A stretch of 64,000 bases of DNA from Candidatus Woesearchaeota archaeon. Lineage in GTDB: Archaea; Nanobdellota; Nanobdellia; Woesearchaeales; UBA10216. Positions within the stretch are counted from its first letter, which is position 1. The number at the start of each line of letters is the position of its first letter. The stretch covers positions 5,745 through 69,744 of the forward strand of contig JACPTG010000004.1 of the NCBI GenBank assembly GCA_016192905.1, in the 5' to 3' direction. Positions 6,001-58,861 of this stretch are shown here, piece by piece. The notes beneath the pieces are model-generated. The model saw nothing but the letters and a program-made list of their open reading frames with translations. It searched no databases and was not told the DNA's origin. The translations under genes were made by a program, and so were the position numbers.

Positions 6001-8804
6001 GTGAGGGAAGCTGTCATGTCAGCATAACGCGGCGCAGTAAAGCTGTACTTACAGTCAGCACTCCTTGAAGTCGCCACTACCAAATTATAAGGAGTTCCTG
6101 AGGTAACGCCAAGCCTTGGGCTGACCAGCGTAATTCCCAAATCACCAGGTGAAACGCAGACACCTGCGGAATTGCAAATCTTTCCTCCGGTACAGGCAGG
6201 CCGGCCCTGGCCACACTCAGGAAGGCACTCGTTGTTCTCGCATACCTTCCCTCCGGTGCATGGCTGGTCAGCATAGCATTGCACGCAATATCCACCCACG
6301 CAGAACCTCTTAACTGCGTCGTTACAAGGATTGTTGCTGTCACAAGGAACTACGCAAGAGCCGCCCCTGCACTCCTGGCCAGCAGGACAGCGATTAGCAG
6401 TGGTGTCACAGGCAACGCAAGTGCCTGAGGAACTGCAAACCTTACCTCCGGTACACGACCTGGACTGGCTGCACTCAGGCCCTGCTGAACACACGCCATT
6501 ATTGCACAACTGGTCAGAAGCGCAACTGGCTCCTGAGTCCCACTCAAGACACGAATCCGAGTCGTAATTGCCGCAAGCCTGAACCTTACCATCAGAGCAA
6601 CGCTTCACGCCTTCGCTGCACTCATTCGTGCAGGGAACAAGCCGGGTGTCGCACTTCTTCGAATCCGGATTGCAGTAACCGGAAACGCAGTCACCATCTG
6701 AGCCGCAACCAGTATCAATCGGGCAGGCAGGGCACGGGCCGCCACAATTAAGGCCAACCTCGCCAGGGTCCTTTACCTCGTTGAAGCAGCTCTGCGGAGG
6801 CATGGGAGCGCACTGGCCTGAAGGATTGCAATAGCCTGTTGTACAGTCAGAGCCCTTACCACACTTCTGTGGAGGCGGGCACCTGGCGCAGAACTGGCCG
6901 CCGCAGTCAACATCTGTCTCGCTGTTGTCCTGGCCTGAGTTGCCGCAGCGAGGGTCAACCTCAACAAAGATTTCTGCTGTCTTGATGATTTCGAGATTCT
7001 TATTCCTGTCCTGGGCATAATAGAAAAGGAAATTCCTTCCCTGCGACAGGGTTTTGGCTGTAACAGCCTCGGGGATGTTAATCAGGTAGGAAGGAAGCTC
7101 CCTTGGAGTACAGGGGGTATTTGTTGCTGAGGAGCAGAAGAAAACCTTTGCGCCTGTAACATAGCCGCCATAACTTTCTTTGGAAACCCTGTCAAACACG
7201 CTGAACTGAAGATAATTAGAACCCTGCCTGAAGCTTGTACTTGGAGGATAAAAGTCAGCCTCACACTGACCTGAAGAGCAGTCAGCAGCCTGGTCAAAGT
7301 CAGCGTCCTTCTTACAAGCATCCTGAATCCACCTGCACACGTTAAGGCCGCAGAATGAATCAGGCGGGGAAACGAGCCGGTTTGAGGAGTCCTTAGACTG
7401 GGCAGAATGGGAGCTACAGGCAGCCTGGCCTGCAAGCCTTGTGCAGTCAACAGGACAATCCGCAGCCAGCCTTGTGCAGTCAAAAAGCGGAGTTGAAAGC
7501 GCAGCCAGCTTTGTGGAAGAGGGCGCATCGAATATTGAATTATAAGCGCTTCGAACGCCCTGAGTCCCTGCGCTGTCAAGCCACTGGCAGTTGTTCTTAG
7601 AACTGTCAATGCAGACTCCAGCCCCAATTTCATCATAAGTGGGCTTCCACTGGCAGTTTCCTGCCCTGCAATTGTTGGCTGTACAGGCGTCCCCTGACTT
7701 GTAGTCATAGCAGCTCATCTGGGGGGAACAGTCGTAGCAGGCATTGGCAGTGCTTTTTGACTTATCATAAAAGCAGTAATTTCCAGCAGCTTCGCAAGAG
7801 GAGCGGGTGGCAAATAGGCCGAAGGGCCTGCCAACAAGGCTGCAGGTTGAAGCCCGCACGCAGGAATAGCCCTCCCTTATTGATGAGTCAGGAGCGCACT
7901 GGGTGCCGGCAGCGCACTGTGTAGTTGTAAGCCTGTTCTGGAAGTCGCAGCTTCCCGCAGAATTGAACAAAGAGCGGAAGCTTGCAGAAACATACTCATC
8001 AAAAGACTGGGCGCCTCTTACCTCATCAATGTAAGGCTTGAATGGCGCCTGAGAGTAAAGCTGAGCGGAAATGCAGAATTTCCTGCCTGCAGCCCTGCCC
8101 CAGCAGGTCAAGTCGCCAGTATTGATGGACTTAACTGCGGGAAAGGACTGGCCTCCCTTGGAAGCAGTAACCCTGTAATTGTACACCTGCCCCCACCTCA
8201 GGCCCTGGTCCCTGTCAGAATAGCTGGTCCCCCTGGCAGTTGCGAGCTGCGCGAAATCAGTGCAGGAAACACCAGTGCAACGCTCAATATTAAAGCTGTC
8301 AGCAGCGCAGTCATCACTCCAAAGCAGCCTTACAAAGCGCTGCCCCTGGACATTCAAAAGCACAAGATTGGGGGTGCAGGAAACACCCTCAGGAGGCGTA
8401 ACCTCTCCACACAACACGCTGCAGGTCTTCCCAGCCACAGGCTCAACAGCAGCCTGGCCAGGCCTCTCGCAAAGCGCCTTCACAACCTTAGTACCCTCAG
8501 GGCAGCAGCAGACAACAGCACACTTCTGCTCAGCAGCGCAGGAAGACTCCTTGAAAAAGGCGCTGCGGCAAGCAGCCGGGGACTGCACCCGGTCAGAATA
8601 GAAGCGGGGGTATTCCTCAGGAGGAGAAGGGCAGCATTCTGAAGGCGAAACCTCAGTACTGGCACAAACCCTCTCAATGGCGTTGGGATTCAGGCAGCAT
8701 GCCTCTGCGCCATCAGCTGAATAAGCAGCCACCGCCAGAAAGGCCAGAGAAGCCAGTAACAAGTACAAAAATGCACCTTTTTTTGCTGCTCCAATACTTA
8801 ACAT
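1..8804 (-). CDS. Giant secreted Cys-rich surface protein (giant 1). Start codon is in the window and the 3' end runs off the left edge (2,934 codons visible)
   Basis: ATG at 8804 (atg tta agt att gga gca gca aaa aaa ggt...). Hand translation gives MLSIGAAKKGAFLYLLLASLAFLAVAAYSADGAEACCLNPNAIERVCASTEVSPSECCPSPPEEYPRFY... The minus frame with end mod 3 = 2 has no entry at all in the ORF track over 8.8 kb; every listed minus ORF here is in one of the other two frames (end mod 3 = 0 or 1). That fits one open frame with no stop inside the window. Spot translations at 6639-6659 (KKCDTRL) and 3-59 (VDCGGSCALEFKTCTVGQG) stay in frame. The N-terminus is paralogous to the heads of 10203..15041 and 15949..20634. 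Confidence 0.85.
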   Translation of the reverse strand, partial: MLSIGAAKKGAFLYLLLASLAFLAVAAYSADGAEACCLNPNAIERVCASTEVSPSECCPSPPEEYPRFYSDRVQSPAACRSAFFKESSCAAEQKCAVVCCCPEGTKVVKALCERPGQAAVEPVAGKTCSVLCGEVTPPEGVSCTPNLVLLNVQGQRFVRLLWSDDCAADSFNIERCTGVSCTDFAQLATARGTSYSDRDQGLRWGQVYNYRVTASKGGQSFPAVKSINTGDLTCWGRAAGRKFCISAQLYSQAPFKPYIDEVRGAQSFDEYVSASFRSLFNSAGSCDFQNRLTTTQCAAGTQCAPDSSIREGYSCVRASTCSLVGRPFGLFATRSSCEAAGNYCFYDKSKSTANACYDCSPQMSCYDYKSGDACTANNCRAGNCQWKPTYDEIGAGVCIDSSKNNCQWLDSAGTQGVRSAYNSIFDAPSSTKLAALSTPLFDCTRLAADCPVDCTRLAGQAACSSHSAQSKDSSNRLVSPPDSFCGLNVCRWIQDACKKDADFDQAADCSSGQCEADFYPPSTSFRQGSNYLQFSVFDRVSKESYGGYVTGAKVFFCSSATNTPCTPRELPSYLINIPEAVTAKTLSQGRNFLFYYAQDRNKNLEIIKTAEIFVEVDPRCGNSGQDNSETDVDCGGQFCARCPPPQKCGKGSDCTTGYCNPSGQCAPMPPQSCFNEVKDPGEVGLNCGGPCPACPIDTGCGSDGDCVSGYCNPDSKKCDTRLVPCTNECSEGVKRCSDGKVQACGNYDSDSCLEWDSGASCASDQLCNNGVCSAGPECSQSRSCTGGKVCSSSGTCVACDTTANRCPAGQECRGGSCVVPCDSNNPCNDAVKRFCVGGYCVQCYADQPCTGGKVCENNECLPECGQGRPACTGGKICNSAGVCVSPGDLGITLVSPRLGVTSGTPYNLVVATSRSADCKYSFTAPRYADMTASLTLQSGTINYYGISLNSVGEGFVYVGCRAADGALSEQRFSLAILNTNATITLTGRDTSSYPVESSISVVSDQDVQCRFTKRYEDSFVQMSRFAGYDEDLESAYKKAHVLPLNVEPFTDLRDGFVNVYTVQCMNKVGNLSMKANVSILANSTIPIALVEPRFGALPSVPYTLRVTTNQPASCRYDFLQTRYERMANRFAAGSSGLSHSAANVQGIGSGYVRVGCSGPVGKVNVTTFDLELVSGEPSISVAADDVTDTFSAEVPLLATATVTSTQKVVCRYSKKADAAYAAMTQFEGSDESSASSYKASWQQDITDLVDEAVNSFTFQCMNKVGTFSNKVTKSIDVNTKAPFGIVSSYSDYYRTRTVSFGVRTTKKASCTYTPGSGQPVSFGEVGLAHSASLELQDGLYAHTVDCTSSSGQSASLTKRFVVDTTPPSTPTVTIEAVSGQGISAGVGIRGTWSSSDAESGIQYYEYSVYYANNNSELLAWTRTAQASATMLTIISDNHLIYAKVRATNRGGLVSAEGRSGTLNPCPSGQCVAPPACSQASPCQEGQVCVDGACVQRCLADTACNSNQRCLNGACSSACVYNSQCSSGQKCVAGVCQAACASDAQCESDKRCIAGLCIPAPGCLSAENCPSSVPRCINNACTTACNSDTQCPSRTKCSSGGACVAVCTSQSDCSSGQQCSNGICSGGSCSTRSDCQNSQNCISGQCTAACASDSGCPVQGTRCIGGSCSSACYSDSHCTGIQKCLNGACIAAGTGCTSDTGCGANQRCYYGACLSECSDSRPCLNSKPCVNGGCVSGCMVDNDCPAGTPRCVNGQCSSSCIFDSNCQQQGQRCVNGVCTAPACASDSQCSNGRCIQGVCVPSPGCGQNSQCPVERRCINGVCSSACISINDCPPNTRCVSGECTSACLVDTNCPDNQRCVNGICQGRSCELGSSQNQCPSGQNCINGVCSAACISDSGCQSPMLRCVAGVCSSACYSNSHCGSGQRCVDGSCVSAGTGCTQDSQCQGGRCVSGACTSACTINSDCPSQKICVGGGCIAGCLDSSQCSQGQRCVNGQCSGLCYDNTHCPAAQRCVNGACTSGCVLFTDCPAGRSCVNGQCIDPNACTPACSLGQVCQNGQCVAECSDGCSPSGSRSCSSDGKVRTCGNYDSDSCLEWDSGTSCASGQACNNGVCSSEPECSASNPCTGGRVCTSAGVCVPCSAENRCPDGRVCDNNGACVTPPSGDLTIALLKPRFGFTPGNNFIFAVGTSVPVDGCRYSLTQPHYDSMTQGLVPYQSITGPNSYGTPLTSLGAGHVYVACKAPGGQPVEEDFALTVLKDNATITLTADNASAIPLASSIRVQSDQDVQCRYTRVYQDLFAEMSGFAGYDEDLESAYAASHEQPVAGLADNSVNVFTVQCVNKVGNLSLKSNITIVANTSFPVYLVEPALGALTGIPYTLAVETLQAASCRYDFTQRNYDLMSQLLSASSSGLRHSVSGLNGIGSGVVHVACRTGSGKNNASTFSLSVISDAPQIQVAAENLYDTVSVETPFISTATVTSNQQVVCRYSKSFDAAYSAMTPFAGSDESESSSYKPLWKQNITDLVDNSVNNYTFQCMNKVGNLSAKVQIGILVNTSAPFMVEPDYRQYYPTRQVAFGARTSKRASCVYSQNSSQQTSFGPAGRQHQATISLAEGRYSFQFTCTSAAGSTATTRADFTVDTTPPSAPSVNGSRDGEVSTFSNRIRASWHSVDNESGIQYYEYSVYYAENNTLIVNWTRTSAEEETVTGLSFANHSFYYVKAKATNNAGNTSAEGRSANVEVELGRSSNHCDNREKDADETGVDCGGRDCRSCGGGGGCTDNEDCRDGYYCSSGACKRGSCSDNVRNGNESDVDCGGNSCSDCRLNATCVQNADCISNYCLFKRCSVQTDSCSNGFRDVGESDVDCGGSCSRMGRKCQDTQTCSEDGDCILGSKCISGRCSSAESSCSNRVKDQFVETDVDCGGSCALEFKTCTVGQG

Positions 8805-8946
8805 CCCTTAAACAGCCTTTTAAAATTCACCCTTTATTATATTTTGCCTTATTCAAAGACTTAGGTGTAAATTTAACCGCCATTAAGTGGCTTATAAAAC
8901 TGTTAAACTAACCTTAATTTGTTCACTGCCTTTATTGGGTTGAACC

Positions 8947-9435
8947 CTACTCTGTCTTGCCGAACTCCTGGAGAATCTTGCGCTGCTCAGAATGCTTCTC
9001 CTTCAGCCGCTTCTCATAAATGTCGCGCTCATACCTGCTCATCACCATGTAAAGAGGGCTCTTCTGGGCCTCGGCATGGAGCTGCGCGGCCGCTGACAGG
9101 GGAACTGCCTTGGGCTGAGCCTTACCAGGCTTTGATTTCCTTAGAAGCATGAAAGCGGCGAAGCCAAGGCCAAGCACGCCGACTCCGATAAGAACAGGCA
9201 CGAGAAGGCCACCCAAAGGACTGCCAGCCTCCTCGGCCTCAGAAGAGGAACCTGAAGATGAAGAGGAGCCTGAAGATGGGGTACTGCCTGAGCCTGCTGC
9301 GGGTTGCTGGATGCTCCGGTCAGGCGGCGGCGGAGGCAGCGGAGGGCCATCATCTGCATCATGATAATTGGCAGCGGCAAATGAAGCCGACAAAACAGCC
9401 AGCGACGCTATCAGCACAATCAAAAAAGGCCTCAT
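8947..9435 (-). CDS. Small single-pass membrane protein (signal peptide, Pro/Ser-rich stalk, TM helix, charged tail)
   Basis: The track ORF 8947..9444 starts at GTG. The first ATG at 9435 gives MRPFLIVLIASLAVLSASFAAA. A PPPPPPD and SSGSSSSSGSSS low-complexity stretch is followed by a hydrophobic LLVPVLIGVGVLGLGFAAFMLL segment. No family recognised. Confidence 0.55.
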   Translation of the reverse strand: MRPFLIVLIASLAVLSASFAAANYHDADDGPPLPPPPPDRSIQQPAAGSGSTPSSGSSSSSGSSSEAEEAGSPLGGLLVPVLIGVGVLGLGFAAFMLLRKSKPGKAQPKAVPLSAAAQLHAEAQKSPLYMVMSRYERDIYEKRLKEKHSEQRKILQEFGKTE

Positions 9436-9502
9436 GATGGACACCTTTGCAAGGCATCAACAATCCTCATATATGAAGTTTGCGGTTGCGTTTTGGAAAG
9501 AC

Positions 9503-10147
9503 TCATTTCGCACCTTCAGAACCCTGGGGCCTGCGGCGGATGAAGATAAAGACGACAACCAGAGAGACAATGGCCACGGCAGCAACCACAGGCAGGACAG
9601 GGAATGAGGGCTTAACAGCAACTGGGATGAGCTTAACGCCTGCCGCGGCTTTTGGGCAGTCAGCCTCGCACTGCTCGCCCTCGGCGCAGATGGAGTCGCC
9701 ACAATAACTATTCAGATGCGCCACTCCAATATCAAAAATTTTTCTTCCACCGATGTCATAAACACGTACGAAAGAAGCATTCGGTGAGTATGGGAGATAT
9801 AGCTGGACAAATGTTGACTCCACTTCGGGCATTGGTTGAGCCTCGGGTACTATGATTTGATTTCCAGAGCGATCAAACCAAGAACCATTAGCCAGAAGCT
9901 GAATTTCGGTAGGAAATTCAAATGTGACTAAGTAAAGTTGGGAACCGTCTTGGCCAATCAACTCAGCTCTGTAACCATATTCAGGCCCCTTTTCAGGAAA
10001 AAAATATACTTGCATAGCATAAGGAAGCTTATATGAAATATTTCCATGAGAATACTCCAGTTCGATAACGTAAACCCTTTCATAAGCAGCATAAGCTACG
10101 GGGGCAAGTAAAAATGCCAGAAAAACGTACATTAAAACATTTTTCAT
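9503..10147 (-). CDS. Secreted, C-terminally anchored small protein, paralog of 15107..15952
   Basis: The ATG at 10147 (aa 43 of track ORF 9503..10273) gives a signal peptide, MKNVLMYVFLAFLLAPVAYAA. The protein ends ...CGDSICAEGEQCEADCPK...SFPVLPVVAAVAIVSLVVVFIFIRRRPQGSEGAK. The longer track start would overlap the end of the upstream giant gene. Confidence 0.75.
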   Translation of the reverse strand: MKNVLMYVFLAFLLAPVAYAAYERVYVIELEYSHGNISYKLPYAMQVYFFPEKGPEYGYRAELIGQDGSQLYLVTFEFPTEIQLLANGSWFDRSGNQIIVPEAQPMPEVESTFVQLYLPYSPNASFVRVYDIGGRKIFDIGVAHLNSYCGDSICAEGEQCEADCPKAAAGVKLIPVAVKPSFPVLPVVAAVAIVSLVVVFIFIRRRPQGSEGAK

Positions 10148-10202
10148 TTTATCCCCCCCAAGCTCCATCTCCGCAGAATACATCCATTCATGATTGGCAG
10201 GA

Positions 10203-13200
10203 TTAATGGCATTTCTTATCTGCTCCGCAAAGACCGCTAATGCAGTCGTTATTTTCACTGCATGACTTACCATTGGAGCATTTCAGGCAGTTACCACCAC
10301 AATCGACATCTGATTCAAAACCATCAAAAGCTCCATTTGTACACACAGTTGCGCATTTATTTGGAGTAGTATATGGGTTGCAGTAGCCTGTGGCGCAGTC
10401 TGTTGAAAACCTGCACAGCTTACCTTGCGCGCATGACACGCACGGACCGCCACAATCAGTATCTGTCTCATCACCATTCTTAATACCGTCGTTGCAGGGA
10501 TTAACAGAACATTTACCAGCGCTCCCGCAGTTACCAGATTCGCAATCAGTTGCAGTCCTGCAGGCCTTATTAAGCCCACACTTCACAGAACAAGAACCAC
10601 CACAGTCAGTGTCGCTTTCGCCGCCATTCTTAATGCCATCAGAACATGACGCGCCACTGAACTTATTCAGCTTATCCGTCAAAAGCTTCTTGTTCCACAG
10701 GCCAAAATCGTAAGTCCCGCACTCCAGGCAACTCATAATAGAAGTGTAAACAGAGCGAAACGCGCCAATTTCTTTCAACCCGCAGCCCTCATGACAATCG
10801 ACCTCAAGGCTGTAAAGCGGAGTACCTTTTTCGCAGTCCACAGTCCCTTCCTCACCGCAGCCATATCCAATAAGACCGTTCCAGGGAGCCTTTTCCCGAC
10901 ATTCCACTTTGGCCCCGCCTACATAGCAGTTGGGGATTGAATACTGAATTGAAGCGCCCTTTATCGCATACTCATCAGCAAGACGCCCAAAGCTGTGACC
11001 TATCTCGTGCACAACAACTTTGTTATCAGATGCGGCGGGAATGCAAGTTATTCCTCTATCGCACTGGAACGTACGGTGACAGGCTTTGAAAATTTCAAGA
11101 TCCACCTGATCTAATATTCCATCATCATTATAATCGTCCAACCCTCGGTCATAATACGCCCTACGATTCTCCTCACAGTCATTCTTTATGGGCACATTCT
11201 TGCAATAAGGCCTATATTTCCCATCGGCCATGCAGTAATCATAAATCCGTATGTAAGCTTGGTCCCCGATTGCAAACCCGGGATAAATGTTTCCATTTAC
11301 CAGTACGACCATCAGCTTGTTTGAGTAAGGGCACAGACCAAATAATCTAAATGCGTCCACCGTAAACAATTTTTCATCGAAGTGGTTACCGCCATAAACC
11401 GCATAGAAATTCATCTTATTCCTGTTGGACGTAAACGGCTCAACTGAGAGGAGGCCATAGTTGCTTCCTGAAGGATCAACAGCCATCTGTGCATATTTCA
11501 GAAACGATTCCTTTGATTCATAGCCTATGCCAACAAAAACGAAATTCACTCTGTCCGCAGACGCGTCATTGCCAGGTATCAGGTCCTCACATACTCCGGA
11601 AGATACAATTCTGAACGTCCTGATGTAGGTTTTTAATATTTTGGAACCGGCTAAATTTCCGGATAGAGTTGCCCTGATATAATATGATTCGGGAGGTGTT
11701 TTTGCGGAATTCCAGACTCCGCCATGGATATTATCCTGAGGGCTAAAATCGCCATGCTTGCCATCATTAAACATCTTAACATTTGCTATAACTTTTGATC
11801 TGCTGTCGAGAATATCCAGTCCAATTTCAGCATCGACAATCCTTGGATCAGTAGTAACTAAAATTGCGAATAATGTGCCTTCAATTATTTCTTGCGGTGC
11901 ATCAAGATACGCATATACTGACTTAGGCAGAATCTTGACTTTTCCCTTGTATACCTCCTTATTTCCTGGCGTGCATTTCACTCCACCCACACCAACGGGG
12001 CAATTCCAGCCTTCTACAGCTAATGTGTAGTCTCCAGGAGAAAATTTTTGAAGCGCATTGTCTAAAACGACCAATGATTCACCTTCTACTGATTCATAAC
12101 CCCATTTAAGTGTACTCCAGAGTTCCTCATCGTTTAAATAAGGGCTTATAACATTTGCGTAAGCATTCCTTTTAACCAGCACCTGAATGGATTCATCCTC
12201 CTCAATAATATCAGGAAAAACGTTGAGAAGTTCTACCTTCGGGCTTTCAATTTTTACACACTTTTTTGAAATGCAGTCCAAGCCAGCCCCACAGTCTGTG
12301 ATGCTGTCGCAATTCTTGCCCGTATAGCACTTAATGCAACTGCCCCCACAATCCACGTCAGACTCTGTACCGTCCTTGACACCATTGCTACAATGTTCAA
12401 CGGTGCAGATATTGCTGCCGCTACAATACTTGGTGCGGCAATCGCTGTATGAATTACATTTTTGGCCAAGTACGCACTTAACGCAAGAGCCTCCGCAGTC
12501 AACATCAGACTCAGAACCATCCTTTTGATTGTTATTGCAATGTCTTACGCACCTTGAATTATCACATATCTTGCCAGAAGGGCAAGGATTGGCGGCAGAG
12601 CACTCCGGCCTTTCACATTTCAGCAAGCTTGGATTGCAGTAGTTGCTCTGGCAGTCCGCTGATACCCTACATTCGTCATCATTTGCACAGCCATTGGGGC
12701 AAGAGCCCCCGCAGTCAATACCAGTCTCATCAGCGTTCTTTTCTCCATCATAACAAGAAGCTGCACAGACCAAGTTTGCACACATGCCCCTGCGGCAATC
12801 TAAGGGCGACCCGCACCTCTGATTATATTTGCAACCACCGCAGGTTCCGCCGCAATCGATGTCAGACTCTCGGCCATTTATAACGCCGTCCGTACAGGAA
12901 GGAATTGAACAAACCCCTGAAGATGATCCTGAAGAAACGCTACAATATCCAGTGCTGCAGTCGCGATACTCCTTACATGGAGACCCTGTCTCGCACGGAG
13001 GGCATGGACCTCCGCAGTTCAACCCTGTTTCCCCGCTATCCTGCACGTTGTTAAGGCAGCTGCTAAAAACAGCGCATTTTCCCTGATTACAGAAATTGCT
13101 CTGGCAGTCAGCCTTAGAAAGGCAAGCCTTATTAATAGGGCACTTGCCGCAGCGAAGGCCGCAATCAGTATCAGTCTCCATGTTGTAATCGAACTTCCCA

Positions 13201-15029
13201 TTGCTGCATGCGAAATCCTGCACAAAAATCCTCAGGGCTCCACTCCAAGGCATTATACCCTGCAACTCCGAATGCTCTGCAGAGGAAACAATATCCCTCC
13301 CGTCCATCGCATCTGAATTTTTGCCCTTATCATAAATCACGTTAGGAGGAAGATTATCCAAAGACATGCCAGCTGGAGGGGCAATGTAAACATTGCTCAC
13401 CTGCAAAACCCTTTTTTTACCAGTATTGTAATCAAAGACAAAGCTGTCAAAGCCCTGGAAGGCGCGGCTTGCTGACTGCAAAGGATTACCGCTGCCATCA
13501 CGCATATCATATTTATCCAGCTCATAAAGATACCACCTTGAGCAGCCATCAGGCTTATGGCTGAAGCCGTGAGCATCCTCAGGGTCAACATCGCAGATTC
13601 TCCTCCATGAACGCTTCCCGTCCTTATGCACGAAAGTCTGGACCAGATGCTTCTTTCCGTCATTGCCGTCAAAAGAATAAACATCAAAACCTGCGAAGCG
13701 ATGGTCCTCCCTGGGAATAACACTCCCATCAGCATAAGTCATCTCCTCCATGCTCAAGTCAACAAAGCGCCACACCTGCTCGCATGAGGCCTGGTTATAA
13801 GCATGAAAGCTCCCATCAAGAGTACAAACCCTATTCCACGCACGCCAGCCATCATGGTGGACAAAGGACTGCACAATCTTCTTGGTGCCATCTGACGAGT
13901 CAAAGATGTAGTCATCAAAGCCATAAAATGTTTTTTCAGAGTCTGCCAGCTTTCCTCCCAAAGAATCAGAAAAATCCTCATCCTTCAAATTCACAAAATT
14001 CCAGGCAGTGCAGCCATCAGGCTTATGGCTAAAGCCATGGTCATCATTCTCATCATAATTACATACCCGGTTCCAGGCACGCCAGCCATCCTTATGGACA
14101 AAACTCTGCAAAATTTTCTTAGTGCCATCGCTGCTGTCAAAAATGAATGTATCAAACCCTGAGAAAGTCTTATCATAAGAAGCAAGGTCAGCACCCCTAG
14201 AATTCTTAAACTCCTCAGCAGCCAAATCAACCCTCCTCCAGGGAGACTCACAGGAAGACTCATCATAACCCCAGTCAAGAAATCCCTTTATTTTGCAAAC
14301 CCGGTTCCAGGCGACATTGCCCTCCTTATTTACAAAAGACTGGACTACCAGCTTGTCAAAAACAGGCTCATCCCCGTTAGGAAAAACAACATCAACCTCC
14401 TGGCCAAGAGAGTAATCTGCCTGGGCGGTGTAAGTAAACCAGCCATCACCAACAGACCATTTTTGCACCTGCCGGCCATCAAGCCACAACTGCATCTCAG
14501 GCGAATTCTCGCCCTTGGCAGAAATCCTGAAACCAGTGCTCCCAACCTTGCCTGAACGGGTTGGAATAGTACCAGAGATAGGCGGAGTGCCTGCACCAGG
14601 AGGAGTTACAGTGCCTGATGGAGCAGCCTTCTCCCTGCAGAGCTGGTCGCACTTCTTCCCAGCCTCGGTCGGGTAATAGACGCTGCTGCCGCTGCACGCA
14701 GACTTCACCCTAACCGTGCCATCAGGACAGCAGCAGCCGACCACGCACTCATCAACCCCGCTGCAGCCTTGGCCCTGCCTGAAGTATAGATTGCTGCATG
14801 TCTGCTGGCTTTTTTCAATCCCTGTGTAAAACCTTGGATAATCCGACGGAGGGGAAGGACAGCATTCTGAAAGAGAAACATCAGTAGAGGCGCAAACCCT
14901 TTCAATCGCATTGGGATTCAGGCAGCAAGAGGCGGCGGAAACAGAACTTGCGCCAAGGGCAAGAAGCGCCAGAACAGCCAGTAATAAGTAAACAAGGACA
15001 CCCTTTTTTACAAATCCGGCACCAAACAT
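10203..15029 (-). CDS. Giant secreted mosaic protein (giant 2) with an M64-like HExxH metalloprotease domain
   Basis: The listed start at 15041 is TTG. The first ATG at 15029 gives MFGAGFVKKGVLVYLLLAVLALLALGASSVSAASCC. Domains seen: the Cys-rich head CCLNPNAIERVC...CCPSPPSDYPRFY...CCCPDGTVRVKSAC, a CBM-like module split by VQSFVHKDGWRAWNRVC repeats, about nine E(S/T)DxDCGGxC modules, and DRVNFVFVGIGY plus VVVHEIGHSFGRLADEY (HEIGH at 10995..11009). Confidence 0.9.
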   Translation of the reverse strand: MFGAGFVKKGVLVYLLLAVLALLALGASSVSAASCCLNPNAIERVCASTDVSLSECCPSPPSDYPRFYTGIEKSQQTCSNLYFRQGQGCSGVDECVVGCCCPDGTVRVKSACSGSSVYYPTEAGKKCDQLCREKAAPSGTVTPPGAGTPPISGTIPTRSGKVGSTGFRISAKGENSPEMQLWLDGRQVQKWSVGDGWFTYTAQADYSLGQEVDVVFPNGDEPVFDKLVVQSFVNKEGNVAWNRVCKIKGFLDWGYDESSCESPWRRVDLAAEEFKNSRGADLASYDKTFSGFDTFIFDSSDGTKKILQSFVHKDGWRAWNRVCNYDENDDHGFSHKPDGCTAWNFVNLKDEDFSDSLGGKLADSEKTFYGFDDYIFDSSDGTKKIVQSFVHHDGWRAWNRVCTLDGSFHAYNQASCEQVWRFVDLSMEEMTYADGSVIPREDHRFAGFDVYSFDGNDGKKHLVQTFVHKDGKRSWRRICDVDPEDAHGFSHKPDGCSRWYLYELDKYDMRDGSGNPLQSASRAFQGFDSFVFDYNTGKKRVLQVSNVYIAPPAGMSLDNLPPNVIYDKGKNSDAMDGRDIVSSAEHSELQGIMPWSGALRIFVQDFACSNGKFDYNMETDTDCGLRCGKCPINKACLSKADCQSNFCNQGKCAVFSSCLNNVQDSGETGLNCGGPCPPCETGSPCKEYRDCSTGYCSVSSGSSSGVCSIPSCTDGVINGRESDIDCGGTCGGCKYNQRCGSPLDCRRGMCANLVCAASCYDGEKNADETGIDCGGSCPNGCANDDECRVSADCQSNYCNPSLLKCERPECSAANPCPSGKICDNSRCVRHCNNNQKDGSESDVDCGGSCVKCVLGQKCNSYSDCRTKYCSGSNICTVEHCSNGVKDGTESDVDCGGSCIKCYTGKNCDSITDCGAGLDCISKKCVKIESPKVELLNVFPDIIEEDESIQVLVKRNAYANVISPYLNDEELWSTLKWGYESVEGESLVVLDNALQKFSPGDYTLAVEGWNCPVGVGGVKCTPGNKEVYKGKVKILPKSVYAYLDAPQEIIEGTLFAILVTTDPRIVDAEIGLDILDSRSKVIANVKMFNDGKHGDFSPQDNIHGGVWNSAKTPPESYYIRATLSGNLAGSKILKTYIRTFRIVSSGVCEDLIPGNDASADRVNFVFVGIGYESKESFLKYAQMAVDPSGSNYGLLSVEPFTSNRNKMNFYAVYGGNHFDEKLFTVDAFRLFGLCPYSNKLMVVLVNGNIYPGFAIGDQAYIRIYDYCMADGKYRPYCKNVPIKNDCEENRRAYYDRGLDDYNDDGILDQVDLEIFKACHRTFQCDRGITCIPAASDNKVVVHEIGHSFGRLADEYAIKGASIQYSIPNCYVGGAKVECREKAPWNGLIGYGCGEEGTVDCEKGTPLYSLEVDCHEGCGLKEIGAFRSVYTSIMSCLECGTYDFGLWNKKLLTDKLNKFSGASCSDGIKNGGESDTDCGGSCSVKCGLNKACRTATDCESGNCGSAGKCSVNPCNDGIKNGDETDTDCGGPCVSCAQGKLCRFSTDCATGYCNPYTTPNKCATVCTNGAFDGFESDVDCGGNCLKCSNGKSCSENNDCISGLCGADKKCH

Positions 15030-15057
15030 GTGTCTAAGCAACTAAATTTTAACCACC

Positions 15058-15106: not shown

Positions 15107-15952
15107 CTACTTCCTGTTATACCCATACTTCTGCTGAAGCTGCTGAAGGGCATAATACTCCTTCAGCTCCTCAGGGGACATCTGCCGCTTAATTGGCTGC
15201 TGCTGGGCGGATGGCTGACTTGGCTTTAGCTGCTGCGGCTGGGACTTGGCTGCGGCAGGAGCAGATGCCTGAGCCTGCTGCTGCCTGGCCGGAGCAGGGG
15301 CTTTGACGGCAGCCTTCTGAGGCCTGCGGCGGATGAAGATGAAGACGGCAGCGAGAGAGACAACAGCCACGGCAACAACCACAGGCAGGACAGGGAACGA
15401 TGACTGCTTTACCGCAAGTGGAATGAGCTTCGGCGATTCCTTCGGGCAGTCAACATCGCACTGCTCGCCTGGAGCGCAGACTGAGTCGCCGCAGAAACTG
15501 GTCAGATGAGATAATGGAATTTTAAGCAGCCTGATTCCGCCGGGCGAATAAACCTCAACTGAACCTGCTTCCTCAGAATATGGAAATAATACATCCTTAC
15601 TGGACTTTTGCAGTGTGACTGATGTTCCATTTGGAATCACCACCTGCCTGCCGGACTCATCAAACCATGATGGGTCGGCCAACCCCGCCAGGACAAGCGG
15701 AAAGTTGAACCGGACCTCCAAAAGAGGATCTGAATTTTTGTCAAGCAGCCTGGCAAGATAGCCGTCTGAAGGCTGATCCCGCTCAGGGTAATAAATGCCT
15801 TCCGCAACATAGGCGCCGCCGTCTGATATTGCGCCATTATCATAAAGCATTGTAACCACGAAAACCCTTCCTGAAGAGGGCGCTTCCAAAGCAACAGCAG
15901 CTACTGCCAGAAGCAGAATGGCCACTGATGCAAACAGGCAGATTCTTCTCAT
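15107..15952 (-). CDS. Secreted membrane-anchored small protein with Gln-rich tail, paralog of 9503..10147
   Basis: Signal peptide MRRICLFASVAILLLAVAAVALEA. The protein contains ...SFCGDSVCAPGEQCDVDCPK...SSFPVLPVVVAVAVVSLAAVFIFIRRRPQ followed by a Q/A/P-rich tail. Its ATG overlaps the giant 3 stop codon (ATGA at 15949-15952). Confidence 0.85.
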   Translation of the reverse strand: MRRICLFASVAILLLAVAAVALEAPSSGRVFVVTMLYDNGAISDGGAYVAEGIYYPERDQPSDGYLARLLDKNSDPLLEVRFNFPLVLAGLADPSWFDESGRQVVIPNGTSVTLQKSSKDVLFPYSEEAGSVEVYSPGGIRLLKIPLSHLTSFCGDSVCAPGEQCDVDCPKESPKLIPLAVKQSSFPVLPVVVAVAVVSLAAVFIFIRRRPQKAAVKAPAPARQQQAQASAPAAAKSQPQQLKPSQPSAQQQPIKRQMSPEELKEYYALQQLQQKYGYNRK

Positions 15953-18900
15953 GGTATGCTGAGTGTGAACTCAACCTCCAAGCTGGTTGGATTAATATTG
16001 CCTGAAATATCCTTGCACTTCACGAATTTCTTAATTTTCCCATTCCATTCCTTTGTGTAACTGTATGCCTTCAAATGAGTCTTCAGATCTGTATCCCTAT
16101 CCAAAACTGTAGCCATTTGATCAAAGGGAACATCTGAACCTCCCACCCTGCACGTTGCCGGTTCGTCTGTGGACACCTCGATTGTCACATCACCGGATGT
16201 AACCAGAGGGGCGGGTCTCACCAATGTGACAACCGGAGGGGTCTTGTCAGAAGCGCTTCCCCCAATAACATTGAAGTCCCTTGAGACGCCGTTATTCGGA
16301 TGGCGAAAAACCATCCCGATTTCAAAATCCGTGACAGTTGCATAAAAAGTGTGCCTGCCTGATGTGAATTTGCTCTCGTACTCACATGGCGCGGATGTAC
16401 ATGTTTTGACAGGTGTTGCACCAGCATCCACATATATCTTGTACCTATAGAGCCCTGTTAGGCTGCTTACAAGCCTGATTTTTACCTGGTCGGCAGTTGT
16501 GGGGGAGGCGGGGTTATTGACAAGGGTTAAAAGCCCCCCTCCACCGACTGATAGATATAATTCCTCGCTGGAGCCTGAGCCTAACCTTGCTGAGTCGGCT
16601 TTTCCAGATACAACAAACATATTTGGCTCTGGGAAAGTTACTGTCAAAGAACATGAGGCGCTGGAGCACTCCTTCACGCTGCGGTCATCAAGGCTGATTA
16701 TAGTGAGATCTGTGTCGGCAAGCTTGCTTCGAACATTTATTGTTACAGGCGAGCCTGCGACCGGCCTTTCAGGCGAATACGAAACATCAACCAAACTTAT
16801 TGCGGGAATTGATATAACTGCGTTACCCGCCGGGAACCTTACCTTATTGCCTGACTTGCCTGTGGCGACTGCATAATAATTCCTGTAAACATTCCGATTA
16901 GTCAGACGAAGAGCGTAACTGCAGGTATTGCTGAAACAGGTGGCCTCTGGGGAGTTATCCATGCCAACGAAAATATCTATCTTGTGCACATCAGGCGAGT
17001 CGCTGGCAGCAGTTATCGTAACTGACTGGCCAATAAACCCTGTTTCAGGGGTATGATAGGCGCTGACAGACAAAGCCTTTGGTCTCGCTGTTCCAGAGAA
17101 AGAGCCGAGGCGCGCGCCAAGCAGCTTCTCATTCCAGGAGCCAAAGGCGTAAGGGTTGGCAAAAACATTTCTCATAATGCTGTTAAATACGGAGCGGAAA
17201 ACCCCCTTATAATAAGCGCAGCCATCATGACACCCAACCTCCAAGTTATAGTTTGCATCAGACTCCTTACAGTCGACCACGCCATCGCTTCCACATCCGT
17301 TTCCAATCAGCCTAGACCACGGGGCTGCTGCCCTGCACTGGTCAGCTGTTACAGGCCTGGAAGGCACATCATAGCAGTTGCCACTTTGACGAATCGAGAA
17401 TAAAGGATTGCCGCGGTCTTCTTCATACTCATCCATAAGGCCTCCAAAGGCATGGCCGAACTCATGCACAACAACACGGGAGCACACAACCCCTGTCTCA
17501 CATTCCTTCCTCACCAGACTGCACGCAGGTTCATTACCATCAGCATAGGCCAAACAGCCCCGCCTTACATTCACCTTTAGACAGGACTCCACTTCGCTGC
17601 AAAGATCAGGATATGAGACGTAAGCATTCCCCTCCAAGTCAGCGAATGCCCGAAACTCGGCGTTTATGAGAAAAACTATATGGCTGTTTGGCATGGCACA
17701 CAAGCCGCCGAAACTATTTAACTCAGATTGCAGATCCTGACTGCCAGAATAACCCTTAAAGTCGCCCTTAAGGACGTCTATATACCAGAAGTTAAACTTG
17801 CCCTTCCCGGATTTAAACGGCTCCAATGACAACAGCCCCGCAGGCCCCTCGACAGAGTTCCGGGCGTACTTAATGAAGTTTTCCCTGCTCTTATATGCCA
17901 CTCCGGCAAAAACTATATTGGCCCTATCACCATCTGCAAGATTGTGGCCTGGAATAAGCTCCTTGCAGACGCCGCCCTGGACCAGGTTCAAAGTTTTTTG
18001 CTCAGACCTTCTGATAGGGCCACGCAACTCCCTCACATCAGCTGAAAACGCCACAGAATACTTCCCCGGAACCAACCCTAAAGTGCTGAAAACGCCGCCA
18101 AACACCTTATCATTCGCAGCCCCATCACCATGATTGCCATCATCAAAAATCTGGATGTTGCCCACCTTCCTGCCTGACTCATCAAACAGCGATGCCTCAG
18201 GCTTCTCAAAAGGCAATGACGAACTGACAGCAGCCCTTACAGAGGCAACAGTTCCAACAACTGCGGACTGGGGGTTTACATTCAACGCCACTGAATACTC
18301 AGAGGTATCAGTGCACTTTCCCTCAACACATTTCAGGCCTCCAAGGCACTTGGAATCTACATCGCATTCTGCCTGCAGGCATTTTCCGCCACTGCAGTAA
18401 TTGCTCTCGCAGTCTTGGGCTGAAAAGCATTGTTGATTGTAACTACATTTCCGCGGGCAGGCCGAGCCGCAGTCAGTATCTGACTCTGCCGGGTCTTTTG
18501 CCCTATTCCCGCATTTGGAAGCGTCAAAGGCGCATTTTCCAGAAGCGCAATAATCAGACAGGCAATCTGCGCCGGCAGAGCACGCCCTGCTGTTTGCACA
18601 CCGAGCCATGCATACTCCACCACAATCAACATCAGACTCGCCTGAATCCAAATTTCCATTGCCACAGCTAAAGCTGCGAAGCTTAAACCTCAGAGCCCCA
18701 TTATAGGGCATTCTCTTGCCGAGAGATGAGCGCTCGGAGTCGCTGACAATTTCGAGGCCGTCAAACGCAGCCTCTGCCTTTCCCTTATCATACACCAACT
18801 CTTTACTGTCTGCATTATAGACTTCGCCGTTTATGGCAACAGACTCCACAAAAAGCTCAGGAGGCTTGGTCTTGAAGATGTAATCATCAAAGCCTGCAAA

Positions 18901-20634
18901 GACCTTCTGGTCATAGGACAACGGAACGGTGTTGGACGAGAACTCCTCAGCAGAAATATCCACAAAATACCAGTCAGAGCAGCCGCCATGCTCGTAATCC
19001 ACGTCATGATAGAACCCATTCGGGTTGTTGGGGTCAACGCCGCAATTCCTGTTCCACGCCCTGCGGCCATCCTCATGGACGAACGACTGCACAAGCCTGA
19101 GCTCGTCCTTGTCATTCCTGAAAATGAAAGTGTCAAACCCTGCGAACTGCTTCTCCTCATCTGAAAGCAAGCCCTTAGCAGGGTCCCTGAACTCCTCAAG
19201 CTTAAGGTTAACAAACCTCCAGTCATCACAGCCGGGATAGTTGTGCTCAGGCCGCGGCGGGCCTGAAAATCCGTGGACATATCGGCCGTCAACAGGACAC
19301 CTCCTATTCCAGGCACGCCAGCCATCCTTATGGACAAAGCTCTGCACCAGCGTATACTTGCCCTTTGAATTAAGAAACTTCATGTCATCAAAGCCTGCAA
19401 AAGTCAAATCAGCCTGGGAAAGAAGCTGCCCAGGCTTAGCCGGGTCAGGAAACAACTCATCCCTCAGGCTTACCAGATTCCAAGATGAACAGGATGAAAG
19501 GTCAATCCCGCGCACTCCTGTACCATCCACAACACAGTCCCTGTTCCACGCACGCCAGCCATCAGAATTCACCACTGACTCAACAATGCGTAGCTTTCCT
19601 GTAGAGTCCTCAAAGACAAAGTTATCATAGCCGTAAAACTTCTGCTCGCCAGAACCCAGGGGCTGGCCTTCAAAAAGCATCCTTTCATTACTAAAAAAGG
19701 CCTCCTGCCAGCCTGTGCAGTCTGCGTTTCCACTTGGAAGCCTGGCAATCCCATTCCTGTCCTTGGCATCCATGCGGCAGGACCTGTAATAATATTTTGA
19801 AGAGTCCTTAAGGACAAATGTCTGGACAATGCGATCCTCTGCCTGATCTGCATTCACAAAAACAACAGCCACCTCCTTATCAGTCGAATAGTCTAAGTAT
19901 ACTGCCTTGTATTCCCTGTAATCAGCTGAATCCTCAACCACCCACTCCTTAATCTTGCTGCCTCCAACCCAAAGCTGCACCACAGCTCCACGCTGTCCCT
20001 TAGCCCTGACAACAAAATTTGCCGGGACCTTCCTGACAGGAACTGTCTCCTCTCCTGGAAGAACCCTCTCCCCCGTCCCCTGACCTGGCTCCGTACTTGT
20101 GGGAGGAGGTGTGCTTGTAGGAGGAACTGTGCCTGTTGGAGTGGATGAGCCCGGAGGTGTGGAAGACGCGGGCCCTGCGCCAGAGGAAGAAGCGCCTGTT
20201 GCAGGAGTAGTTCCTGTCGCTGGAGGAGGCGATGCAGGCTTCTCCCTGCAAAGCTGGTCGCACTTCTTTCCTGATTCTATCGGATAATACGTGTTGCTGC
20301 CTGTGCAAGCGGATTTAACCCGCACAGTGCCGTCAGGGCAGCAGCAACCCCTATTGCACTCCACCACACTGCTGTCGCTGCAATCCTTGCCTTCCTTAAA
20401 ATAAGGGGTCAGACAGGCCTGCTGGGTTTTCTCAATACCTGAATAAAACCTTGGGTAATCAGACGGAGGGGAAGGACAACATTGATTTGCGGTCACCCGG
20501 GATGTTGTGCACAAACGCTCAATGGCGTTAGGGTTCACGCAGCAGCCGTCAGCAGCCTGCACAGCCACTGCAATTACAAGAACAGGGGCTAAAATGGCGA
20601 GCAGCATTAGAATGCGGCGAATCAGCTTGTGCAT
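15949..20634 (-). CDS. Giant secreted mosaic protein (giant 3) with an M64-like HExxH metalloprotease domain and C-terminal Ig-like domains
   Basis: 1,561 aa with ATG at 20634. The signal peptide is followed by the same CCVNPNAIERLC...CCPSPPSDYPRFY...CCCPDGTVRVKSAC head and a P/T/S-rich linker. A split CBM-like module carries IVESVVNSDGWRAWNRDC, LVQSFVHKDGWRAWNRRC and LVQSFVHEDGRRAWNRNC repeats. DRANIVFAGVAY and VVVHEFGHAFGGLMDEY are present (HEFGH at 17452..17466). Confidence 0.9.
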   Translation of the reverse strand: MHKLIRRILMLLAILAPVLVIAVAVQAADGCCVNPNAIERLCTTSRVTANQCCPSPPSDYPRFYSGIEKTQQACLTPYFKEGKDCSDSSVVECNRGCCCPDGTVRVKSACTGSNTYYPIESGKKCDQLCREKPASPPPATGTTPATGASSSGAGPASSTPPGSSTPTGTVPPTSTPPPTSTEPGQGTGERVLPGEETVPVRKVPANFVVRAKGQRGAVVQLWVGGSKIKEWVVEDSADYREYKAVYLDYSTDKEVAVVFVNADQAEDRIVQTFVLKDSSKYYYRSCRMDAKDRNGIARLPSGNADCTGWQEAFFSNERMLFEGQPLGSGEQKFYGYDNFVFEDSTGKLRIVESVVNSDGWRAWNRDCVVDGTGVRGIDLSSCSSWNLVSLRDELFPDPAKPGQLLSQADLTFAGFDDMKFLNSKGKYTLVQSFVHKDGWRAWNRRCPVDGRYVHGFSGPPRPEHNYPGCDDWRFVNLKLEEFRDPAKGLLSDEEKQFAGFDTFIFRNDKDELRLVQSFVHEDGRRAWNRNCGVDPNNPNGFYHDVDYEHGGCSDWYFVDISAEEFSSNTVPLSYDQKVFAGFDDYIFKTKPPELFVESVAINGEVYNADSKELVYDKGKAEAAFDGLEIVSDSERSSLGKRMPYNGALRFKLRSFSCGNGNLDSGESDVDCGGVCMARCANSRACSAGADCLSDYCASGKCAFDASKCGNRAKDPAESDTDCGSACPRKCSYNQQCFSAQDCESNYCSGGKCLQAECDVDSKCLGGLKCVEGKCTDTSEYSVALNVNPQSAVVGTVASVRAAVSSSLPFEKPEASLFDESGRKVGNIQIFDDGNHGDGAANDKVFGGVFSTLGLVPGKYSVAFSADVRELRGPIRRSEQKTLNLVQGGVCKELIPGHNLADGDRANIVFAGVAYKSRENFIKYARNSVEGPAGLLSLEPFKSGKGKFNFWYIDVLKGDFKGYSGSQDLQSELNSFGGLCAMPNSHIVFLINAEFRAFADLEGNAYVSYPDLCSEVESCLKVNVRRGCLAYADGNEPACSLVRKECETGVVCSRVVVHEFGHAFGGLMDEYEEDRGNPLFSIRQSGNCYDVPSRPVTADQCRAAAPWSRLIGNGCGSDGVVDCKESDANYNLEVGCHDGCAYYKGVFRSVFNSIMRNVFANPYAFGSWNEKLLGARLGSFSGTARPKALSVSAYHTPETGFIGQSVTITAASDSPDVHKIDIFVGMDNSPEATCFSNTCSYALRLTNRNVYRNYYAVATGKSGNKVRFPAGNAVISIPAISLVDVSYSPERPVAGSPVTINVRSKLADTDLTIISLDDRSVKECSSASCSLTVTFPEPNMFVVSGKADSARLGSGSSEELYLSVGGGGLLTLVNNPASPTTADQVKIRLVSSLTGLYRYKIYVDAGATPVKTCTSAPCEYESKFTSGRHTFYATVTDFEIGMVFRHPNNGVSRDFNVIGGSASDKTPPVVTLVRPAPLVTSGDVTIEVSTDEPATCRVGGSDVPFDQMATVLDRDTDLKTHLKAYSYTKEWNGKIKKFVKCKDISGNINPTSLEVEFTLSIP

Positions 20635-21542
20635 ATCACTTCACCAGTATACTGTTTTTTTGAAGCAAATTTAAGGTAGCTTGAATCGGGAAGCCCGGGG
20701 TCAAGCGCAGGATTGTCCAGCGCAAACAGGTAGAGATTCTTGGTCACGCCGCTTACAGCCAAGATTTTCTCACCTTTTTTTCCCGGCTTAATTGTAATCT
20801 CTCCCTGACCGGACTTCTTATGCCTTGGCCCAGACCAGTCTGTACCCTGACAGTTATCTAGGATGGTCTGGGCGACCTTGGCCGCCTCATCATATGAAGC
20901 CATGAATGGGCTGTTTGAAGACCATGAAAAGTCAGAAAAAAGGTACTCTGAGGCACCGTCATGCACTGTCACGTTGGCCAAAAGCTGGACAAACATTTCC
21001 TTGTCGTTAAGGAGCGTGACTATATCAAAAGACTGCCGCTCAATTTCAACATCATAGCCTATGGCTTTCATTTTGGCAGCCACATCGCAAACCACTTTTG
21101 AATTTGCAGGCGGCGTGTAACCTGGACAAATATCGGCGTTTGCAGGCCTACTGCGAGGGTTCAACCGCATAGACAGGTATGCCTTCAGCCGCTCGGCGAG
21201 CCTTTCCTTATCCTGCCTGTGAACAACAAGCTCTATAGGCCTCTCGTCAAGAATATATGCGACCTTATAATCCCCATCATTAAACGCCTCTCCCTCAGTT
21301 ACGGGGTCTGAGGAATCACCGCCCTGACTGCAATAGATGTAGCCGCCCTGGCGTGCAGCCAGCTCAAGCCCTGCTGCAGCCGTGGATGCAATGCACTGCT
21401 CAACATAAGCCCTGACCGGCGCTGCGCTGTCATAACTCTTCAGCTTCACGCTGCTCTTTGGGGAAGTCACCCAGAAGACTATGCCTGCGGACACCATGAG
21501 TAGGACACCTATTATTATGAATACAGAGACCTGCGCCCTCAT
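20622..21542 (-). CDS. Membrane-anchored protein with pilin-like (class III-like) N-terminus
   Basis: 306 aa. The N-terminus is MRAQVSVFIIIGVLLMVSAGIVFWV (short basic N-terminus, then Q, then a hydrophobic helix). Its ATG overlaps the giant 4 stop (ATGA at 21539-21542) and its 3' end overlaps the giant 3 start by 13 nt. Confidence 0.8.
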   Translation of the reverse strand: MRAQVSVFIIIGVLLMVSAGIVFWVTSPKSSVKLKSYDSAAPVRAYVEQCIASTAAAGLELAARQGGYIYCSQGGDSSDPVTEGEAFNDGDYKVAYILDERPIELVVHRQDKERLAERLKAYLSMRLNPRSRPANADICPGYTPPANSKVVCDVAAKMKAIGYDVEIERQSFDIVTLLNDKEMFVQLLANVTVHDGASEYLFSDFSWSSNSPFMASYDEAAKVAQTILDNCQGTDWSGPRHKKSGQGEITIKPGKKGEKILAVSGVTKNLYLFALDNPALDPGLPDSSYLKFASKKQYTGEVICTS

Positions 21543-58642: not shown

Positions 58643-58722
58643 TAGCAGGCTGTGGCTACCTTGGATTTAACAGCCCCTTTCGGGAGACTCGTGGCGTGTA
58701 CGGCCAGGCTTCGTGAACCGCC
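58643..58722 (+). repeat. MITE-like intergenic repeat, copy F (L-arm type)
   Basis: Sequence is tagcaggctgtggctaccttggatttaacagcccctttcgggagactcgtggcgtgtacggccaggcttcgtgaaccgcc. It aligns with copy A and with the reverse complement of copy E. Confidence 0.8.
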
Positions 58723-58861
58723 CCCTGTTTACTTCCTCTTGCTTGATGAACTCTTTCAATTGTACAGCTTACATTGTACCGTACACCAAAAAAAGGGCCT
58801 TTCAATAACTCGCATCCGCATCGGGATAAATTTTTATAGCTCAAATTTCAGAATTTGCCGC

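Follow-up and report, generated by a model that had tools for sequence, protein, structure and literature searches.

Giant proteins of a Candidatus Woesearchaeota archaeon carry a four-repeat, probably ring-closed array nested in an apparent CBM60 domain

Carbohydrate-binding modules (CBMs) of family 60 (CBM60; PF16841; vCBM60, PDB 2xfd/2xhh) are calcium-dependent beta-sandwiches that bind xylan, glucan and galactan and are circular permutants of CBM36, and the hemopexin fold is a four-bladed beta-propeller. Here, we analysed a stretch of 64,000 nucleotides from a Candidatus Woesearchaeota archaeon (assembly GCA_016192905.1, contig JACPTG010000004.1, positions 5,745 to 69,744 of the forward strand), hereafter the window. 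Three giant proteins encoded on its minus strand, giants 2, 3 and 4 (g2, g3 and g4), carry four copies of a composite module in which two CBM60-like halves flank an array of repeats. The reading that we favour, and regard as fairly probable, is that of an extracellular binding unit consisting of a CBM60 sandwich with a four-repeat, probably ring-closed array nested in its central hairpin. In a limited literature search, the closest arrangement to emerge was the inverse one, for example in Clostridium perfringens sialidases, where a beta-sandwich CBM or inserted domain lies within a propeller (PMC11525138). Like these sialidases, the window proteins would be extracellular and carbohydrate-directed, and would join sandwich and propeller by insertion instead of placing them one after the other. 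In contrast to them, the topology is inverted, with the propeller-like array inside the sandwich, and the array itself shows no catalytic family signature.

All four copies share one layout, namely an N-terminal CBM60 half, an array of about 300 amino acids (aa) made of four repeats of about 78 aa, and a C-terminal CBM60 half. Repeat units were located with a profile hidden Markov model (HMM) built from three g2 units and run against all six-frame open reading frames (ORFs) of the window. The strands of a unit are named A' (the N-terminal 'FxGFDxYxF' strand), B', C and D, and A' strands were additionally scored with a position-specific scoring matrix (PSSM). The modules and their parts are as follows.

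13218-14540, minus strand: g2 module, aa 168-608
14373-14540, minus strand: g2 N-terminal CBM60-like half, aa 168-223, ending ...EVDVVFPNG; Pfam CBM60 positions 6-57
13419-14372, minus strand: g2 nested array, aa 224-541; register B'CD-(A'B'CD)x3-A' with 16 strands; each unit has two conserved Cys
14166-14354, minus strand: g2 unit 1, without an A' strand of its own, aa 230-292; HMM positions 16-79, E 2.4e-13
13929-14165, minus strand: g2 unit 2, aa 293-371; HMM positions 1-79, E 1.2e-44; seed sequence
13698-13928, minus strand: g2 unit 3, aa 372-448; HMM positions 1-79, E 5e-40; seed sequence
13461-13697, minus strand: g2 unit 4, aa 449-527; HMM positions 1-78, E 1.2e-44; seed sequence
13419-13460, minus strand: g2 trailing A' strand FQGFDSFVFDYNTG, aa 528-541; HMM positions 1-20, E 0.0015; A' PSSM score 11.3
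13218-13418, minus strand: g2 C-terminal CBM60-like half, aa 542-608, KKRVLQVSNVYI...IYDKG...GALRIFVQ; calcium/ligand-type motifs degenerate
18670-20022, minus strand: g3 module; opening half 19849-20022, array about 18859-19848, closing half 18670-18858
23750-25042, minus strand: g4 module A; opening half 24833-25042, array 23921-24832, closing half 23750-23920; DRNLIVDSITIG..AED kept
22478-23740, minus strand: g4 module B; opening half 23567-23740, array 22676-23566, closing half 22478-22675; GDRDLLVDYIAIDG..AED kept; best CBM60 signature

Among the six-frame ORFs of the window, the unit HMM reported g2, g3 and g4 only. Each of the four modules contained four cores of the form VQSFVHxDGxRAWNRxC...C..W.FV.L (domain E values from 1e-44 to 2e-5). 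In every module, the first core lacked its A' strand and a lone extra A' followed the fourth core. The original prediction, made from the DNA letters of the window, had proposed a composite module common to the three giants with four to five repeats per copy. The three ORFs exist, all the motifs quoted for them are present, and the module coordinates were right within 1-2 bases; the count, however, is four throughout and not four to five. The modules were colinear over their full length with pairwise identities of 31-39%, the insertion point was identical in all of them, and no tandem repeat of the unit period was found at the DNA level. The lack of a DNA tandem repeat, together with this level of identity, indicates old protein repeats and not an artefact of assembly or of recent duplication.

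The case for a split CBM60 domain comes from what happens when the array is removed. As encoded, g4 matched the Pfam CBM60 model with 53.3 bits (gathering cut-off 28.2 bits) in three separate stretches, and a contiguous domain of about 90-110 aa appeared only after deletion of the array in silico. With the array deleted, the match ran unbroken over profile positions 2-88 of 91, including for g2, whose opening and closing halves became contiguous on CBM60. The joined flanks scored 51.2 bits for g4 module B (g4B), 33.3 for g4 module A (g4A), 28.5 for g2, which is marginal, and 23.8 for g3, which is below the cut-off. On the solved vCBM60 chain 2xfd_A, the joined g4B flanks also aligned contiguously over residues 4-80 (E 3e-6), and when the whole-module profile was searched against PDB, the same CBM60 chain was matched by the opening and by the closing segment. 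P0006, a g4-like archaeal relative, carries the same CBM60 subtype uninterrupted; its CBM60 residues 1-65 correspond to g4B module positions 2-62 and residues 67-127 to positions 355-415, leaving a gap of about 292 aa at one point. The insertion site is the turn between ...VVFPxxD and DRxLxVDYI..., at the tip of the central beta-hairpin. In every split copy detected, 267-300 aa with four units lie between the halves; g3 shows the same layout by unit HMM and module alignment, though it was not detected as split in the CBM60 survey of representative proteins.

By sequence, each module is one CBM60-family domain, presumably a single beta-sandwich, with an inserted array. The original prediction had taken the flanks for a single CBM36/CBM60-type domain with the repeats inserted in a loop. 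Restoration of a continuous match on array deletion bears out the insertion and argues against two independent, unrelated flanks, and the CBM60 assignment stands on the joined-flank matches, P0006 and 2xfd_A; the CBM36 part falls, as CBM36 was never a Pfam hit in any scan. The closing motifs DRxLxVDYI and AED had been predicted for all copies; g4A and g4B keep them, whereas g2 and g3 have lost them. The two g4 copies thus retain the ...VxFxxD...DRxLxVDYIxIDG...AED signature of the family. Compared with described CBM60 domains, those of the window differ in being split by about 300 aa at the central hairpin, in their degeneration in g2 and g3, and in a longer C-terminal tail (IYDKG...FDG.DIV...GALRI), which P0006 has as well. 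Since the g2 and g3 motifs are degenerate, their CBM60 lobe may be a mere scaffold. Within the AlphaFold2 model of the g2 module, the opening half forms five strands. Foldseek matched this model to 2xfd_A with a probability of 1.00, a target-normalised template modelling (TM) score of 0.41 and a root-mean-square deviation of 19.6, values to be read with the inability of a sequential aligner to bridge the insert.

A profile search of 1.84 billion representative proteins gave 310 hits at E <= 0.001; the best 150 were examined, and the counts that follow refer to these. Beyond the window proteins and their near-identical copies, the nested layout occurred only in P0004 (36% identical to g4) and P0005, and it is conserved across the paralogues of the window despite their divergence as well as in P0004. 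All other CBM60-like domains, found in 80 proteins, were contiguous. The nesting is confined to a small archaeal clade. P0006 shows the converse of the window layout: its array (aa 333-828; locus L005, gene 8001-11855) is itself broken by about 240 aa between units 2 and 3, and is followed by the uninterrupted CBM60 domain (aa 842-972).

The repeat itself is far more widespread than the nesting. It was carried by 59 other representatives, or 62 proteins with the three window giants, and 51 of these 62 had exactly four units; the two eight-unit proteins consist of two arrays of four each. At least 50 representative proteins carried the array without any CBM60. The family consensus is GYDAYVYTSNGKQKLVQSLISKDGKTAWSRTCPIDPTGGVDWSSCSAWSEVDLSN, with strong conservation of R30 (93%), C32 (99%), C45 (96%), G24 (88%), Q17 (84%) and W48 (80%), and all four window modules fit the resulting four-repeat pattern 'QS(L/F)xxxDGxxxWxRxC...C..W...(D)L' with four units each. 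The two Cys of each unit probably form a disulfide. Members are secreted or lipoprotein-like proteins of about 330 aa as well as large multidomain proteins; where they have a name, it is 'hypothetical protein' or taken from a neighbouring domain, and the organisms named are uncultured archaea (Candidatus Woesearchaeota) and bacteria (Microgenomates). One shorter array, in P0009 of a Candidatus Woesearchaeota archaeon (aa 184-395), has three cores and the trailing A' only; it could be a variant with three blades or an array that has degenerated or been cut short.

Scans of Pfam-A and NCBIfam with single units, three units, whole giants and 10 stand-alone relatives returned no match to the repeat, in agreement with the original statement that it was unrecognised. 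The array profile found no PDB sequence below E 0.1. A word-index homology search with the g2 module, 84 single units or 30 arrays returned no matches, which reflects that a word index misses this repeat family. On sequence grounds, the repeat defines a wider extracellular family unlisted in Pfam-A and NCBIfam. Three local resemblances were considered. The B'-C hairpin of the unit, S-x-D-G-x-x-x-W (consensus SKDGKTAW), recalls the Asp-box (BNR) motif SxDxGxTW, and Asp-box sialidases are among the top fold matches; its spacing is off by one residue and no BNR Pfam model hit the unit at E <= 10, so that we regard this as a resemblance and not as membership. The core 'DG...W.R.C....C' (e.g., g2 aa 318-345) resembles the disulfide-bonded C-terminal D-region of the type IV pilin PpdD (PDB 6gms, E 0.11; NF007862, E 9e-4 for P0047), a weak similarity that is probably due to chance or convergence. 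Membership in the FG-GAP/VCBS-type DxDxDG loop families was rejected, as there was no Pfam hit and the motif spacing differs.

Structure prediction points to a compact, 16-stranded, propeller-like domain with no close solved structure. For the g2 array alone (321 residues, alignment of 30 sequences), AlphaFold2 gave a predicted local distance difference test (pLDDT) score of 93.6 and a predicted TM score (pTM) of 0.90; for the whole g2 module, with only four input sequences, these were 85.3 and 0.78. According to DSSP, each unit in both models has four strands, one of them short and the others 8-10 residues long, which gives a four-stranded sheet per repeat and 16 strands in total. Most structures that Foldseek retrieved from PDB and BFVD were beta-propellers, namely GH43 enzymes, sialidases, fucose lectins, PON1 and WD40 proteins; probabilities reached 1.00, E values were about 1e-4 or weaker, and BFVD gave weak propeller-type matches only. 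No solved propeller superimposed globally at TM >= 0.5 when normalised to the query.

Among the best Foldseek matches are propeller lectins and glycosidases, including the Kordia fucose lectin (6htn), the AAL-type lectin AofleA (7c38), GH33 sialidases (2f0z/3h6j) and GH43 arabinanases (5c0p/3a71). Like the predicted array, these are built of sequential four-stranded antiparallel blades, and they are extracellular and carbohydrate-directed. Their blades, however, number five to seven and measure 40-50 aa, whereas the array would have four of about 78 aa with a Cys-bracketed loop, and the array shares no sequence similarity with them (no Pfam hit; PDB sequence E > 0.1). Hemopexin-like propellers (hemopexin, the C-terminal domains of MMPs and plant seed proteins of this fold such as that of Dolichos, PMC6934871) have the same number of blades and are likewise extracellular. 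Membership in this group was rejected, given that no scan gave a Pfam hit, none of these proteins was in the Foldseek top 50, and repeat length and motifs are unrelated.

Whether the array closes on itself was approached through its strand register. In 52 four-unit arrays, we looked for an A' strand ahead of the first core and behind the last one. A terminal A' was found at the N-terminus only in 22 arrays, at the C-terminus only in 15, and at both ends in none (Fisher p = 3.7e-5). Arrays always seem to be 16-stranded, in one of two registers that are one strand apart, as a closed ring would lead one to expect whether or not it has 'velcro' closure, and the mutual exclusion of the terminal A' strands argues for a closed four-bladed ring. 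All nested arrays are in the B'...A' register. Here, the last strand would pair with the first and complete blade 1 as a 'velcro' strand, and the two ends of the insert would come to lie side by side as neighbouring antiparallel strands. As insertion into a hairpin requires adjacent ends, the B'...A' register of the nested arrays would supply the geometry needed for a domain of about 300 aa to be accommodated at the tip of the central CBM60 hairpin. Of the four strands that each repeat would add (A', B', C and D), three are long and one is short; each repeat also carries its two conserved Cys. In the array-only model of g2, the trailing A' is a full strand of 10 residues with pLDDT blocks averaging 90-93. 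The module model extends the first B' to 13 residues and the last A' to 16, beyond the length of the internal strands, which fits a predicted two-stranded ribbon linking ring and sandwich. AlphaFold2, Foldseek and the register test together support the small propeller that had been guessed originally, and we consider it likely that the array closes into a four-bladed, propeller-like ring; this support is indirect, and for closure it comes from the fixed number of units, the two registers, the confidently modelled trailing strand and the pTM.

With regard to function, the giants have signal peptides, and these, combined with the two conserved Cys per unit, suggest an extracellular and probably disulfide-bonded domain. 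Elsewhere, the array is accompanied by Dockerin_1 (P0018, P0020, P0025, P0037), Cohesin (P0018), a Sulfatase with SGSH_C (P0037), right-handed beta-helices (P0026, P0038), BNR_4 (P0050), TIG and DUF922, and, by source name, PEGA. These are the usual company of carbohydrate-binding modules. By this analogy, the array or the module may bind glycans, a possibility that we hold with some reserve. Through a rigid, two-lobed extracellular unit of this kind, the giant secreted proteins would be tethered or directed to a surface or polymer that bears glycans. Going further, we tentatively suggest that the unit of about 78 aa represents a new family of disulfide-stapled, four-bladed propeller lectins or CBMs in uncultured archaea and candidate-phyla bacteria, and that the lineage of the window has nested it in a CBM60 to form a rigid bivalent glycan-recognition unit.

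A number of observations weigh against this picture of a ring-closed glycan-binding array within a sandwich. On the structural side, the query-normalised TM score to real propellers did not exceed 0.34 (best 5c0p), and the best values of 0.52-0.53 were obtained by normalising to a target of 143 aa (6htn); a hemopexin-type four-bladed propeller was absent from the top 50 Foldseek matches. The closing CBM60 segment reached a pLDDT of only 57-71 in the module model, and that the two flanks pack together as a single sandwich is something that we infer from sequence and the pTM of 0.78 rather than see, as is the pairing of A'5 with B'1 from the register. In the register test, 15 of the 52 arrays had neither terminal A' detected, and the arrays are related to each other, so the Fisher p value overstates their independence. 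The CBM60 halves of g2 and g3 lack the conserved motifs. Finally, glycan as the ligand is deduced by analogy instead of from direct evidence, and the co-occurrence with other domains is only suggestive.

Of the alternatives, the one that survives best is that the module serves in protein-protein adhesion or has a structural role, for instance in cell-cell attachment or S-layer anchoring, and does not bind carbohydrate, with the CBM60 part as a relic scaffold. Consistent with this, the g2 and g3 flanks without DRxLxVDYI/AED score at or below the Pfam cut-off, propellers are common platforms for protein interaction, and the giants contain many Cys-rich and Ig-like modules of the adhesion type. 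Such a role does not readily explain the strong CBM60 signature in both g4 copies, nor the occurrence of the array beside dockerin, sulfatase, beta-helix and BNR_4 domains, which is the typical company of polysaccharide degradation, nor the fact that some of the better structural neighbours are fucose lectins, sialidases and GH43 enzymes. We therefore regard it as rather unlikely.

An open array, either a beta-solenoid or an elongated stack of three-stranded meanders acting as a spacer or stalk within CBM60, would account for the low query TM to real propellers noted above and for the lack of a match to any four-bladed propeller in PDB. However, the length of an open solenoid should vary, whereas the count is nearly fixed at four and the eight-unit proteins are twice four; the pTM of 0.90 over 321 residues indicates a compact globule; a circular permutation by one strand, in which the terminal strands exclude each other, is what closed rings typically show; and an insert in a hairpin needs both of its ends adjacent. 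This makes an open arrangement improbable. That the unit is a duplicated CBM60 central hairpin, and the array an expanded segment of CBM60 instead of a foreign insert, finds some basis in a similar hydrophobic pattern ('VxVVFxND-RDLxVDYI' versus 'FDxYxFDSSDG-KKIVQSF') and in the PDB search, where CBM60 residues 55-79 align twice, once to the opening segment with the first B' and once to the last A' with the closing segment, but we reject it as very hard to credit given an hhalign probability of 0.1 (E 0.54) between the unit and the joined-flank profile, the many arrays without CBM60, the 80 CBM60 proteins without such an expansion, and P0006, where array and CBM60 stand side by side.

If a ring-closed array nested in CBM60 is correct, the repeat adds a new family to the carbohydrate-binding and lectin modules, in the form of a large-bladed, four-bladed propeller without a solved homologue. 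The module would further be a natural example of a ring-shaped repeat domain placed in a beta-hairpin by a one-strand register shift that joins the ends of the insert, which is of use for the engineering of domain insertions, and it would help to find out which ligands are recognised by the giant surface proteins of little-studied archaea. For protein-family annotation, the repeat model would help with members that currently bear uninformative names. No concept is overturned, as domain insertion, CBMs and propellers are all familiar; what would be new is a repeat family of the propeller class and the nesting of a propeller in a sandwich.

The locus surrounding the modules comprises four giant genes and their neighbours:

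3-8807, minus strand: giant 1 (g1), cut off by the window start, >2935 aa
10203-15041, minus strand: g2 ORF
15949-20634, minus strand: g3 ORF
21539-25900, minus strand: g4 ORF
8400-8700 (g1), 14640-14930 (g2) and 20270-20560 (g3), minus strand: Cys-rich N-terminal domains

The nested module is absent from g1 over the more than 2935 aa encoded in the window; this protein has long Cys-rich repeat tracts and repeated segments of about 330 aa. The listed TTG start of g2 (15029-15041) is probably too far upstream, the database copy P0002 beginning at the ATG at 15029, four codons downstream. Directly after the signal peptide, g1, g2 and g3 have in common a Cys-rich domain of the form 'CC(L/V)NPNAIER(V/L)C...ECCPSPP.(D/E)YPRFY', for which no Pfam match was found. 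Numerous Cys-rich modules of about 40 aa ('SD.DCGG.C..C...C....C...YC') occur in g2 (aa ~610-925 and 1470-1612), with similar ones in g1 and g3, and no Pfam or NCBIfam model assigned them. In g2 and g3, Pfam further reported a weak metalloprotease signature of the M64 HExxH type. The Peptidase_M64 match is limited to the HExxH stretch, with 24-28 residues and 26-30 bits (g2 aa 1340-1363, g3 aa 1053-1080), and any protease domain there is very divergent from the IgA-peptidase M64.

Three small ORFs of 256-306 aa are interleaved with the giants on the minus strand (9503-10273, 15107-15952 and 20622-21542), none with a Pfam match. They overlap the giants by 4-13 nucleotides, which suggests translational coupling, and ORF 9503-10273 has a signal-like hydrophobic start and a hydrophobic C-terminal tail. 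The alternation of small ORF and giant is kept in contig L001 of a related metagenome-assembled genome. A syntenic cluster is present on a contig of GCA_964504135.1, a record titled 'uncultured Methanosarcinales archaeon', with protein identities to the window of 95% for g4, 88% for g3 and 67% for the N-terminal ~660 aa of g2. An Archaea_SRP RNA at 63705-63974 marks the window as archaeal. On the plus strand, an ORF of 925 aa (58652-61429) encodes an intein with a LAGLIDADG homing-endonuclease domain.

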